From assembly GCA_964527785.1 (NCBI GenBank), contig CAZGNO010000004.1, positions 14,364 to 78,363 on the forward strand: DNA of 64,000 nt, written 5' to 3'. The translations under genes were made by a program, and so were the position numbers. A model generated the notes under the pieces. The model was not told the DNA's origin and ran no database searches. It saw nothing but the letters and a program-made list of their open reading frames with translations. Each line of letters starts with the position of its first letter. Position 1 is the stretch's first letter. Below, piece after piece: positions 5,731 through 51,369 of the stretch. This stretch comes from an uncultured Chitinophagaceae bacterium (lineage in GTDB: Bacteria > Bacteroidota > Ignavibacteria > Kapaibacteriales > UBA961).

Positions 5731-8151
5731 ATGAAATATCTCTTTATTCTTTTCTTGTGGTGCTTTCCGGTGATTATCTTGGCGCAACAGAGCGGCAGCA
5801 GCACCATTATCCGGGGTCAAATTACCGACGCTGAAACAAATGAGCCGATACGTTTTGCAACCATTAGAGTAGAAGAAACACCAAAGGGTGCAATGAGCAG
5901 CATAGGTGGAAAATTTCTAGTGAAGATTCCACCCGGAATGCAAAGAGACAGCTTCTTGCTCAAGTTTTCGATGGTCGGATATCGCACCGAACGGCGCACT
6001 ATAAAGCGAACAAATGATACACTTCACATTAATTTAGCTCTCCGTCCTGCTCCATCACAAACAATGGAAGTGGTGGTTTCAGCAGAAGACCCGGGTATCA
6101 AACTGATGCGAAACGTTCTGAAACGTAAACAAGAACAGCGCGATTCACTAAGTACATACACATACAAACTCTACACAAAATTCCTTGCAAGTACTGACAC
6201 TATAACTGCTTCCCGTGCCGACAGTCGCGCCGATACTACTATCATTGCCATTTTTGAATCCTATTCCAACGGATATTTTGCGAAGCCCGATAAGTACTTC
6301 AACGAAATTACTCAACGCCGACAAACAGCGAATGTCCCCCCCGAAGCAAATTTTGTAGCATTCGGCACAAATATCAATGCGTATGATGATTATGTAGGGC
6401 TGCTGAGTGAGAAAATTGCTACCCCGTTTCACCCCGATGCACTTGATTATTACGATTTTGTTCTCGAACGGCAGATTGAGGGGGATTCGCTCACAATCAG
6501 CCGTGTACGTGTACATCCCAAAGGTGACCGCAAACTCTTTTCGGGTACTGTGGATATTGACGCTCGGAAGTTCATACCACTTTCAGTAGAATTAACTCCA
6601 AATCGTGCAGTACAATTACCATTTGATGCCCGTCTTAGGTTCGACCAAAAATTTGAAGAAATAGGACGTTTCGTACTCCCTACCGGCCTGCATATTTTCT
6701 CTACACTCGAAGCGGCATTTTTGTGGATACTCGCACCGCGTTTGGATATTACTATCGAGACCGTAGCGTATGATTATGAACTCAATATCCCCGTAAACGA
6801 TGATTTGTTTTCCAAACGCCGTGTGGAGGCAAGTTCGACTGCAGAAGTATTTGATTCGACTGTGTGGATTGATAATCCTGTACTGCCGCTACGAACACAG
6901 GAAGCAGATGCCTACCTTAGTATTCAACACAACAGGGACAATGCAGATTCAGCAATCGGCACGAATTTGATTGACCGAACTTTTGGTGTGTTCGCTCGGA
7001 CTGCAGTGCGCCTAGGGCAGCGTCCTTTTACCGGCTTTGAAGATATTTTCCGTTATAATCGGGTACAGGGGGCATATCTGGGAATTGGGCTTCGAGATGA
7101 CTTATCAACGTTCATTCATTGGACTGCAAAAGTGGGCTATAGTTTTGCAGATAAACGTCTGTCGGGTGAATTGATGCTTAGGAAAGGATTTGGCGATGCA
7201 CAGCTTTTTTCAGTGGAGGCAACACTGTTCAGGCGGCTGACGCGGCGGGACAATCCCTACATTGTTACTTCGAACGGCATTACTCCTACAGCACTTTTAT
7301 TCAAGACTGATTATGGTGACTATTACTATGCAAATGGAGTTGAGGCGGCTGTTGAAATCAGCTTCGGGCAATTGAAGTTTATCCGGCGGGATATTTTTGC
7401 GCGCCCCCGTGTATTTAGGGTCTTTGCACGCAGTGAGTACGAGCTGTCCGCGCCAAAGCAAACAGATTTTGCCGTATTCGGCGATACTTTTCGTGATAAC
7501 CCGCTTATAATGGACGGAATGATGCGTTCATTCGGCGCAGAAATCCGTTGGGACTACCATCCTCAACGGCGGATTAGTACATTCGGGTTTAATATCTATA
7601 CTGAGATTTCCAATCCACAGATTATGCCGAGTGATTTTTCTTTTGAGCACTATCACGGCTCGCTCCAGTTACGCACGCCTACGCTGCCTCTATGGTTGCT
7701 AGACCTACGGTTCTCCGGCGGGTATTCCAGAGGAAATGTACCGCCGCAGAGATTTTTCAGTCTGGAATCTTCTACAACGTATATAGCAGCCGAGAGTGTG
7801 TTTCGCGGAATGAGAGCAAAGGAATTTTACGGGGACAGTTATGCAGCAATTTCAATGGAGCATAATTTTGGCGAAGTGATACCCGGTGTATTACGAATAC
7901 CAAATATTGCATCATTCGGCATTGAGTTCATTGCAATTGTAGGTGTGGGATGGACGCAGTTTTCATCACAAACCCTCAAGTTTACAAATACAAAACTTCC
8001 ATCTACATCTGCTACGGCGGATGGCTGGTATTATGAGGCAGGGATAGGGTTTAATAAAATTGCATTGTTCCTGAGATGCGATATTTCTGCCCGGTTTTCA
8101 CAGCGGAATACTCCTGTGTTCGGGCTTACGATTTCGGGTGCTACGTATTGA
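5731..8151 (+). CDS. Outer-membrane protein with an N-terminal carboxypeptidase-regulatory-like (CarbopepD_reg) domain, DUF5686-like
   Basis: A signal peptide is followed by AQQSGSSTIIRGQITDAETNEPIRFATIRVEETP..GGKFLVKIPPG (Cna-B/CarbopepD_reg fold). The roughly 800-aa beta-rich remainder ends in an aromatic residue. The likely start is ATG 5731 (MKYLF), not the TTG at 5701. Confidence 0.6.
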   Translation: MKYLFILFLWCFPVIILAQQSGSSTIIRGQITDAETNEPIRFATIRVEETPKGAMSSIGGKFLVKIPPGMQRDSFLLKFSMVGYRTERRTIKRTNDTLHINLALRPAPSQTMEVVVSAEDPGIKLMRNVLKRKQEQRDSLSTYTYKLYTKFLASTDTITASRADSRADTTIIAIFESYSNGYFAKPDKYFNEITQRRQTANVPPEANFVAFGTNINAYDDYVGLLSEKIATPFHPDALDYYDFVLERQIEGDSLTISRVRVHPKGDRKLFSGTVDIDARKFIPLSVELTPNRAVQLPFDARLRFDQKFEEIGRFVLPTGLHIFSTLEAAFLWILAPRLDITIETVAYDYELNIPVNDDLFSKRRVEASSTAEVFDSTVWIDNPVLPLRTQEADAYLSIQHNRDNADSAIGTNLIDRTFGVFARTAVRLGQRPFTGFEDIFRYNRVQGAYLGIGLRDDLSTFIHWTAKVGYSFADKRLSGELMLRKGFGDAQLFSVEATLFRRLTRRDNPYIVTSNGITPTALLFKTDYGDYYYANGVEAAVEISFGQLKFIRRDIFARPRVFRVFARSEYELSAPKQTDFAVFGDTFRDNPLIMDGMMRSFGAEIRWDYHPQRRISTFGFNIYTEISNPQIMPSDFSFEHYHGSLQLRTPTLPLWLLDLRFSGGYSRGNVPPQRFFSLESSTTYIAAESVFRGMRAKEFYGDSYAAISMEHNFGEVIPGVLRIPNIASFGIEFIAIVGVGWTQFSSQTLKFTNTKLPSTSATADGWYYEAGIGFNKIALFLRCDISARFSQRNTPVFGLTISGATY

Positions 8152-17581: not shown

Positions 17582-17605
17582 TTCTTCTGCCAAATGTAAC
17601 ACAAA

Positions 17606-17638
17606 AAAGCGTGATTGTTCATTCAATCACGCTTTTTT
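17606..17638 (+). terminator. Rho-independent terminator
   Basis: aaagcgtgattg-ttcatt-caatcacgcttt followed by tttt. Confidence 0.8.
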
Positions 17639-17787
17639 GCTTACCACTACCTATCTACCGCGAACTCTTCCCGTTGATTTTCTTTTTCTAAAACCAAATT
17701 CTGTGCTATTTTGTGAAAAATTAACACAGCAGACAACATGAATGATTAGAAGATCAGCACGTTTATTCATAATTTTACAAATACAGA

Positions 17788-36871: not shown

Positions 36872-36892
36872 TTTTGTTATTAAAAGTTCATA

Positions 36893-37678
36893 GACCTTGA
36901 AGGTTTTCGAAAACCTTCAAGGTCTTAAATTCTCACATACAACTATCTATTCAGATTATTCAAAAATACCATTCATTTGAAAATTCTCTTATATCAATTG
37001 GCTGTTGATGAAATTCTCTAAATAACCGTTCACCTCCAAACCATGTCAGTACTTTATTACGTTCTATTTTAGTATCTTTTGTTGAACATAAAGTCTGATA
37101 TGAAGAGAACCTCCAATCATTTATATTATCAACGAACCCGTGATGAACAGGATTAGAGTGAATGTAATGTATCAATTTAGTAAAATAGTTAATATTGTTT
37201 ACTGGTTTACGTTTAATATTGGTGCGAAATACTGCTCCTTTTCGAGCAAACATTTTATTATACGCTTTAGCGTATGCATTTAAAAAGTTACTGAACTGCT
37301 GATTTACCCTTTTATTTACGATATCACTTACTGTATAGAGGTTCTCAAAATCAAGAGAATTTTTTGTGTTATTCTTGAAAAACTCAATAAGTTCACCCTC
37401 TGATTTAATATAAACCAAGAAATGAAAATGATTAGGCATTAAACAATAAGAATATGTATCTAAAATAGGAGAAAGGTATTGTGAATACTTATGAAGGAAG
37501 TATAAATAATTATCTTCTGTCCTAAAAAGATTTTCATCACCGTTTGCATGGTTATATAGGTGATAGTATGTGTCCGGTAAGAAAGGAGTTTTGGCTTCCA
37601 TATCAAAACGTATAATGTCATAAATTATATTTTAAAACAATCCTAAACCTTGAAGGTTTTCGAAAACCTTCAAGGTTT
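36893..37678. mobile_element. REPtron-like unit: a HUH/Y1 (IS200-like) transposase gene flanked by two copies of a perfect palindrome
   Basis: The left palindrome gaccttgaaggttttcgaaaaccttcaaggtc lies at 36893-36924 and the right palindrome aaaccttgaaggttttcgaaaaccttcaaggttt at 37645-37678. They share an identical 30-bp core. Confidence 0.65.
36960..37601 (-). CDS. IS200-like / REP-associated tyrosine (Y1, HUH) transposase
   Basis: HUH motif YCLMPNHFHFLV, the N-terminal motif YHLYNHANGDENLF and the catalytic Tyr region IHYIHSNPVHHGFV, 213 aa. Confidence 0.75.
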   Translation of the reverse strand: MEAKTPFLPDTYYHLYNHANGDENLFRTEDNYLYFLHKYSQYLSPILDTYSYCLMPNHFHFLVYIKSEGELIEFFKNNTKNSLDFENLYTVSDIVNKRVNQQFSNFLNAYAKAYNKMFARKGAVFRTNIKRKPVNNINYFTKLIHYIHSNPVHHGFVDNINDWRFSSYQTLCSTKDTKIERNKVLTWFGGERLFREFHQQPIDIREFSNEWYF

Positions 37679-43338: not shown

Positions 43339-43386
43339 AAAAAAAAAAGCCCTGCCGGATTTTCCAATCCGGCAGGGCTTTTTTTA
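43339..43386. terminator. Bidirectional Rho-independent terminator
   Basis: A-run, then gccctgccggat-tttcca-atccggcagggc (perfect 12-bp stem), then T-run. It lies between the convergent PIN gene (+) and the OmpA/TSP3 gene (-). Confidence 0.85.
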
Positions 43387-51283: not shown

Positions 51284-51310
51284 GATAATATATAGAATGC
51301 TTAAAACAAC

Positions 51311-51335
51311 AAAAGGGCTTTTTCAAGCCCTTTTG
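51311..51335 (+). terminator. Rho-independent terminator
   Basis: aaagggctt-tttc-aagcccttt followed by tg. Confidence 0.7.
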
Positions 51336-51369
51336 TCATTAATATTTATCGTTTGAATCTATCGAATCA

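Follow-up and report, generated by a model that had tools for sequence, protein, structure and literature searches.

A gene for a small tyrosine nuclease that stands between two copies of one hairpin may be an insertion sequence (IS) of the IS200/IS605 type, or a resident gene of a REP-associated tyrosine transposase (RAYT; REP, repetitive extragenic palindrome) flanked by the hairpins that belong to its product. Which of these applies is the question raised by a stretch of 64,000 nucleotides from contig CAZGNO010000004.1 (assembly GCA_964527785.1, an uncultured Chitinophagaceae bacterium that GTDB places in the Ignavibacteria), hereafter the window, in which a gene of the HUH/Y1 nuclease type (213 aa; 36960-37601, minus strand) is bracketed by two perfect palindromes. 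From the evidence given below, we consider it likely that the locus is a REPtron, in which a RAYT-type HUH/Y1 gene, present in single copy and inherited vertically, stands between its cognate REP hairpins.

The 30-mer ACCTTGAAGGTTTTCGAAAACCTTCAAGGT matches exactly at 36894-36923 and at 37647-37676, one copy on either side of the gene as the preliminary description of this DNA had stated, and nowhere else in the 64 kb. Both matches extend to perfect palindromes of 34 nt: the downstream (3'-side) REP-like hairpin AGACCTTGAAGGTTTTCGAAAACCTTCAAGGTCT (36892-36925; AGACC...GGTCT) lies 34 nt past the stop codon, in the spacer between the gene and a gene for a flavin adenine dinucleotide (FAD) oxidase, and the upstream (5'-side) REP-like hairpin AAACCTTGAAGGTTTTCGAAAACCTTCAAGGTTT (37645-37678; AAACC...GGTTT) lies between pyrE and the gene, 24 nt from the stop codon of the former and 43 nt from the ATG of the latter. 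The two 34-mers differ in their second and second-last bases (G..C in the downstream copy, A..T in the upstream copy). Measured to the 30-mers, the 3' spacer is 36 nt long and the 5' spacer 45 nt; of the earlier figures of 36 and 44 bp, the former was thus correct and the latter is to be replaced. As single-stranded DNA the downstream copy folds with an energy of -15.3 kcal/mol (z = -7.2) and the upstream copy with -17.2 kcal/mol (z = -7.3), and none of 200 shuffled sequences was as stable. When up to three mismatches were allowed, no further copy of the 30-mer was found in the window (the number expected from shuffles was also zero), a search with the 18-nt core of the palindrome returned the same two sites, and no degenerate or half-site copy was found in the window besides the two flanking palindromes. 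The upstream hairpin scores as terminator-like (an intrinsic terminator) for pyrE, and a search of Rfam over the region gave no family at the gathering score. No second copy of the gene was found in the 64 kb.

The 213-aa open reading frame (ORF) that had been described with the motifs NHFHF and IHYIHSNPV was found, with the motifs at residues 57-61 and 144-152, respectively. Its HUH motif (codons H58-F59-H60, 37422-37430, minus strand) and its catalytic tyrosine helix (Y146-I-H-S-N150-P-V-H-H154, 37140-37166, minus strand) contain five residues, H58, H60, Y146, N150, and H154, that are invariant in an alignment of 33 homologues; the counterparts of these residues in Escherichia coli TnpA_REP are H59, H61, Y115, N119, and H123, which are the metal ligands and the nucleophile of that enzyme (PMC3479197). 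The spacing of the tyrosine, the asparagine at Y+4, and the histidine at Y+8 is identical in the 213-aa protein and in 4ER8 (E. coli TnpA_REP), and the tyrosine motif is Y-x3-N-P-x2-H, in contrast to Y-x3-Q in IS200. When a profile of 33 family members was compared with all PDB sequences, the single match was 4ER8 (E = 7.6e-7), with an alignment that spans the tyrosine helix and, after it, the DW..SS segment. An AlphaFold model of the protein (predicted local distance difference test score (pLDDT), 92) also matched 4ER8 best in a Foldseek search (E = 1.2e-7; template modelling (TM) score, 0.65), followed by IS200 (2F4F; E = 3.1e-4), and the fold matches to IS200, IS608, and ISDra2 (E of about 1e-3 to 1e-4) were about 1000 times weaker than that to 4ER8. 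In the region of E. coli W94 (the class 2 W[EQ] motif), where the alignment with 4ER8 is unreliable, the family has an invariant F125, and L124-F125 is nearly invariant. Judged by sequence and by the model, the protein appears to be a distant RAYT-type HUH/Y1 enzyme with its active-site residues intact. The earlier assignment to REP-associated transposases instead of classical IS200 was borne out by the best match to 4ER8 in both the sequence profile and the fold, by the Y-x3-N-P motif, and by the syntenic position of the locus in a second species.

Database searches returned about 1300 related proteins, mostly from Bacteroidota, each found on few contigs. A protein identical to that of the window is encoded on a metagenomic contig of 91 kb. 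Nearly all of them are without a precomputed Pfam domain (a precomputed match to PF01797 was present in one of the 120 best homologues), and their source names are hypothetical protein, transposase, or 'REP element-mobilizing transposase RayT'.

An orthologue with 84% identity is present in CALMMI01, an uncultured member of the Ignavibacteria that represents its species (locus L049), and the gene order there matches that of the window: FAD oxidase, hairpin(s), gene, hairpin, and pyrE. Between the window and this sister genome, the synonymous divergence (dS) of the RAYT-like gene is 1.01 and the ratio of nonsynonymous to synonymous divergence (dN/dS) is 0.085, as compared with a dS of 1.04 and a dN/dS of 0.026 for pyrE, and a dS of 1.62 and a dN/dS of 0.075 for the FAD oxidase. 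Because the synteny, dS, and dN/dS are like those of the neighbours, the gene has been resident since the species split and under purifying selection. The upstream 34-nt palindrome, together with about 15 nt of its 5' flank, is identical in the two genomes, although synonymous sites are close to saturation (proportion of synonymous differences (pS), 0.56). On the downstream side (L049, 6360-6610; window, 36880-36960), two hairpins are present in the sister genome, as compared with one in the window: an imperfect copy is aligned with the copy of the window, and an extra perfect copy follows 68 nt further on, in AT-rich DNA that is poorly alignable. This difference in hairpin number represents the gain or loss of a REP since the species split. 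As for an empty-site/filled-site comparison, L049 was the sole orthologue of the window among the genome loci listed (at least 112), and no unit boundaries were derived. On comparison of these two sequences, the locus behaves as a RAYT locus, not as an IS, and it was not recently inserted as an IS.

The association of gene and hairpin was also followed in 80 metagenome loci chosen by protein homology alone, 69 of which had enough flanking sequence. A perfect palindrome (stem of at least 11 bp) occurs within 120 nt of the gene in 34 of these 69 loci, and on both sides in 17. The palindromes vary between loci (ACCTGACAGGT, ACTTTGACAAAGT, CCCTCCAAGGG, AGTCATACTATGACT, and others) and agree within a locus, the identity of the arms being 0.79 within loci versus 0.41 between loci. 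Two paralogues in the single genome of Rapidithrix thailandica each have their own set of upstream, internal, and downstream palindromes. Such locus-specific matching is what would be expected as the signature of cognate enzyme-site pairs. The earlier statement that the same hairpin stands at both ends, unlike the dissimilar left and right ends of an IS200/IS605 element, thus extends to homologues elsewhere, each of which may likewise stand between a matching pair of hairpins of its own. Furthermore, in 19 of the 80 loci (and also in L002, L022, and L087) the gene itself contains an in-frame palindrome, situated between the HUH and tyrosine motifs. These copies encode NLxGF[EQ]NLxG in a surface linker, the part of the model with the lowest confidence. 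The variable linker that joins HUH and Tyr in the window gene (KNSLDFENLYT, residues about 80-90; 37332-37364, minus strand) is likewise the block of lowest pLDDT, and it contains no hairpin (NSLDFENLYT; z = +0.59). A peptide trace, FENL, may hint faintly at a decayed internal REP in this gene. The best match at the DNA level was at residues 80-81, where such a remnant would be expected (18 of 33 positions, as compared with 17.4 in shuffles), and was not significant.

The dispersal of the palindrome was surveyed by a scan of one genome per species with the pattern CCTTGAAGGTT N2-10 AACCTTCAAGG, which returned at least 112 stretches from at least 84 assemblies (by accession prefix). The sister genome contains at least 10 copies on 9 contigs; the eight copies away from the gene are isolated palindromes of 33-34 nt between ORFs, and they show both of the foot variants seen in the window (AGA...TCT and AAA...TTT). 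Thus, confinement of the palindrome to the two flanking sites, which the preliminary description had taken as an argument for a single IS copy, is true of the window and not of the lineage. Among the matches listed, other genomes have at least 3-6 stretches each, the largest count per genome being nine stretches. The taxa among these matches are mostly Bacteroidota and Ignavibacteriota, and also Beggiatoa-like Gammaproteobacteria, Chloroflexi, and one deltaproteobacterium; the single matches in Omnitrophota and Neisseria may be unrelated hairpins. Many of the copies elsewhere have A- and T-runs alongside.

The anatomy of the hairpin was examined with the same material. In 66 of 119 copies there are exactly three more base pairs outside CCTTG...CAAGG, and the resulting unit, which has sharp limits, consists of two 15-nt arms, with an A at the start and a T at the end, joined by 1-4 nt; the paired feet are AAA, AGA, or AAT. 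Each 15-nt arm is itself near-palindromic (ACCTT-G-AAGGT), with 5.15 self-pairs versus 3.52 +/- 0.12 in shuffles (40 palindrome types). The element is in effect two inverted 15-nt palindromic units, a minimal design of the REPIN (REP doublet forming a hairpin) or 'double-foot' kind. Since the hairpin is fully symmetric, it presents the same substrate on both strands. Note that each element contains four alternating half-sites and that alternative folds are possible.

Several observations on individual copies and loci accompany the survey. Single hairpins are kept at orthologous sites with matching flanks in L010 (6845-6871) and L110 (7898-7924), in L041 and L111, and in L007 and L074, which are species-level genomes of Maribellus and of Mariniphaga plus two metagenome-assembled genomes of Bacteroidia; individual copies are therefore long-lived. 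The arm ACCTT[G/C]AAGGTTT (L006-L117) also accompanies RAYT-like genes whose products share only 38-45% identity with the window protein and which are polyphyletic in a rough tree, and P0004, a relative with 60% identity, uses ACCCGCAAGGTTT instead; therefore, the REP sequence does not simply track the protein phylogeny. In Candidatus Halobeggiatoa sp. HSG11 (L054), a RAYT homologue with 38% identity has tandem palindrome arrays on both sides (30-1392 and 6793-7971), with a period of 61-62 nt, the palindrome ACCTTGAAGGTTT, and 10 pattern matches in the locus; a reading of this run as a CRISPR array was rejected because the spacers are conserved, and the run is a tandem repeat resembling bacterial interspersed mosaic elements (BIMEs). 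Much longer palindromes (55-77 nt, stems of 25-38 bp, centre AAACCT...AGGTTT) flank a distant homologue with 36% identity (L172; 2324-2400, 3120-3196, and 3208-3262). In Emticicia sp. SJ17W-69, a second gene with the Pfam domain Y1_Tnp (PF01797; L203, 1-234) lies 6 kb from the family member, next to which no perfect palindrome was found.

Several results weigh against the REPtron reading. The 213-aa protein has a sole match in NCBIfam, NF047646 (REP_Tyr_transpos), whose score of 48.2 bits (E = 9.9e-13) is below the cut-off of 80 bits, and its score against the Pfam model of Y1_Tnp (PF01797), 14.1 bits (E = 0.052), is below the cut-off of 23 bits. The tetranucleotide that had been expected 5' of each hairpin was not seen: neither GT[AG]G (GTAG) nor CGTC is present, and the eight positions outside the stem in 238 flanks show an AT-rich background only. 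No dispersed copy of the palindrome is present in the 64 kb of the window itself, and the conservation of the palindrome could reflect a function for the host and not the action of the RAYT. This last point leads to a reading in which the palindromes are mainly regulatory for the host, as bidirectional terminators, mRNA-stabilizing hairpins, or operators of a dimeric DNA-binding protein, while the HUH protein binds them (for example, for autoregulation) without mobilizing them, so that the locus would be a fossil REPtron. It is in keeping with the terminator score of the upstream copy for pyrE, with the common direction of the three genes, whereby both hairpins would be transcribed, with the A- and T-runs beside many copies elsewhere, with the resemblance of the four alternating half-sites (ACCTT/AAGGT twice) to a protein operator, and with an apparently low copy number, no extra copy being present in 64 kb. 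However, a role as terminators leaves unexplained the co-variation of palindrome and gene as well as the in-frame copies, and the invariance of the catalytic residues in a gene with a dN/dS of 0.085 is also unexplained. We therefore regard this reading as unlikely, although it deserves to be kept in mind, and note that it and the REPtron reading are not mutually exclusive.

That the hairpin-gene-hairpin unit is an autonomous, single-copy IS of the IS200/IS605 type with unusually identical ends has been largely refuted and is now very improbable. The Y1/HUH fold is indeed common to IS200 and IS608, the hairpins are subterminal on both sides, and the spread of the family over many phyla and over contexts that are unrelated, cas operons among them, means that it has moved over long time scales. 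Nevertheless, an autonomous IS does not agree with the occupation of the same chromosomal site in two species at a dS of about 1, with the low dN/dS, or with the single copy in the window and the few contigs per protein. The number of hairpins at the locus differs between species while the gene is unmoved, hairpins stand alone in intergenic DNA, the tyrosine motif is not that of IS200, the protein matches 4ER8 far better than it matches IS608 or ISDra2, and no TnpB/IS605 partner ORF of at least 40 aa adjoins the gene. An accidental association, in which two similar ordinary terminators happen to flank the gene, would fit with the location of both hairpins in intergenic spacers after co-directional genes, but two exact 30-mers were observed where none is expected, the window's other strong hairpins show no relationship to them in sequence, and dozens of homologous loci have the same arrangement; this explanation is refuted.

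If the REPtron reading is right, the locus would work by analogy with E. coli TnpA_REP and IS608 (PMC3479197, PMC6006769). When the DNA becomes single-stranded, at the replication fork or during transcription, each palindrome would fold to a hairpin of about 15 bp, to which the protein would bind on the single strand. A metal ion would be held by H58, H60, N150, and H154; Tyr146 would cut near the hairpin with formation of a 5'-phosphotyrosine link, and the strand would then be rejoined. By such reactions hairpins might be copied, moved, or homogenized, with the gene itself remaining in place. An additional role of the hairpins in RNA is probable, as terminators or stabilizers between the co-directional pyrE, RAYT, and FAD oxidase genes.

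Among known systems, E. coli TnpA_REP (RayT/YafM; subclass 2.2 of Quentin et al. 2018; 4ER8) has the same HUH/Y1 fold, the same active-site set, and a DW..SS segment that aligns with that of the window protein, and its gene is likewise flanked by cognate hairpins, single-copy, vertically inherited, and not moving as a unit (PMC6006769). The two proteins are only about 13% identical in the fold alignment, and the E. coli protein has 165 aa, as compared with 213 aa and an extra C-terminal helical region here. In E. coli the REP hairpin is imperfect, requires a 5' GTAG, and is present in hundreds of copies per genome, whereas the element described here is a perfect, untagged, symmetric 33-34-mer with at least 10 copies (in the sister genome). 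Subclass 2.4 (group 4 RAYTs of Bertels; phyla that include Cyanobacteria and Bacteroidetes; 'double-foot' REPs) is similar in its symmetric palindromic REPs and its patchy occurrence across phyla, and its HuH motif, NH[IFV]H, fits the NHFH of the window protein. However, the REPs of this subclass start with GT[AG]G, end with C[TC]AC, and have G-C-rich stems of about 28 nt (Table S1 of that paper), in contrast to the AT-rich A[AG]ACC...GGT[CT]T here with no GTAG, and the subclass is without the C-terminal SS extension that the window family has. Subclass 2.6 (Bertels group 5; mostly Bacteroidetes; 'atypical secondary structures') is similar in that untagged flanking hairpins recur in the genome, in its centre in Bacteroidetes, in a Y motif like YIH[QN]NP, and in the conserved SS after the core (PMC6006769), but its hairpins are short, weak, and G-C-rich (for example, GCTAGCGCGAGCGTCCCGCTCGTG) and its HuH motif is NH[LIV]H, not NHFH. 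By comparison of motifs, not of sequences, the assignment is ambiguous between subclass 2.4, subclass 2.6, and the FQ/NH[YF]H part of subclass 2.1. REPINs (Bertels and Rainey 2011) also consist of two inverted short palindromic REPs that form one long hairpin, together with a single-copy vertical RAYT; in classical REPINs the spacer is tens of nucleotides long and there are hundreds of copies, whereas here the arms are 1-4 nt apart, the unit is 33-34 nt, and the count is a lower bound. The TnpA of IS200/IS605 (IS608, ISDra2) shares the HUH/Y1 fold and hairpin recognition on single-stranded DNA, and differs in being multi-copy, mobile as a unit, and equipped with dissimilar ends and Y-x3-Q.

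Quentin et al. 2018 (PMC6006769) have already described arrangements in Bacteroidetes that resemble REPtrons, 'double-foot' REPs that are symmetric and REPs inserted in frame between HuH and Y (both in subclass 2.4), and atypical hairpins without a tag (subclass 2.6). The motifs AAGGTTT, AAACCTT, CCTTGAAGG, and CCTTCAAGG are absent from Table S1 of that paper, and a search of a literature library for the palindrome sequence returned no relevant paper. Thus, each unusual feature has a precedent, and this type of REP and this Pfam-invisible branch of the family appear to be undescribed.

As for the neighbouring genes, pyrE, the 213-aa gene, and the FAD oxidase gene are all on the minus strand. 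The product of pyrE matches TIGR00336 with 124.8 bits (cut-off, 106.8 bits), in agreement with the earlier annotation. The other neighbour encodes an FAD/4Fe-4S/CCG oxidase of 941 aa, for which YdiJ, the name given to it before, is the best NCBIfam match, far below the cut-off; by sequence, 'YdiJ-like' is as far as its naming should go. Strong perfect hairpins occur elsewhere in the window at 17602-17639, 43342-43385, and 51309-51336, with stems of 12-20 bp, A-runs before them, and T-runs after them; these three resemble ordinary bidirectional intrinsic terminators and are unrelated to the REP in sequence.

Another feature of the family is its presence in cas operons. Type I-B-like cas operons enclose at least 10 of the homologue loci, and the gene recurs there at two positions: one between cas6 and a second cas6-like gene that is followed by p194 and cas3 (L002, 2021-6618; L200, 5197-12557; L148; L137; and L159), and the other between a cas7-like gene and cas4-cas1 (L199, 360-3669; L130; L120; and L052). 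In L167, cas6 is also upstream, about 1.5 kb from the gene. REP hairpins are found at cas intergenic junctions, and three loci obtained by the hairpin only (L048, L056, and L057) also carry these cas genes. Of the 80 loci selected only by homology, 6-7 were embedded in cas operons, as were three of the eight proteins whose contigs were looked up; the expectation for a random gene is well under 1% (a rough estimate). The cas-linked genes are spread over at least three parts of a rough neighbour-joining tree, and they include the nearest relatives of the window gene. The possibility that the CRISPR repeat is the REP was rejected, the array repeat of L056, CTACCAATTGCACCTTTTGGAATTGAAAC, being unlike the palindromes, and a tblastn search of the window with these Cas proteins found no homologue. 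Defence islands attract mobile genes, and for this reason hitch-hiking is the default reading of the embedding. That the present RAYT clade, the window gene's closest relatives among its members, is functionally tied to type I-B-like CRISPR-Cas is a speculative idea to which we give little credence. If it were true, the HUH nuclease or the hairpins, instead of being passengers, could serve the expression or processing of the cas operon or the handling of single-stranded DNA in adaptation, and the copy in the window would be a chromosomal offshoot of a cas-linked lineage.

What use a RAYT is to the cell and how REPs spread are long-standing puzzles that have not been settled, and almost all work has been done on Proteobacteria. 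The REP of the present family is short, perfectly symmetric, untagged, easy to recognize, and often in frame in the gene of its own enzyme. It would therefore offer a clean system in which to ask how a RAYT recognizes its hairpin without the GTAG guide and whether the enzyme explains the conservation of REPs. At the level of the family, the features that are worth the attention of specialists are the untagged symmetric REP across phyla, the REP within the gene, and the embedding in cas operons. For annotation, such 'hypothetical proteins' with their flanking hairpins, which Pfam Y1_Tnp misses, would be better called REPtrons than copies of IS200.

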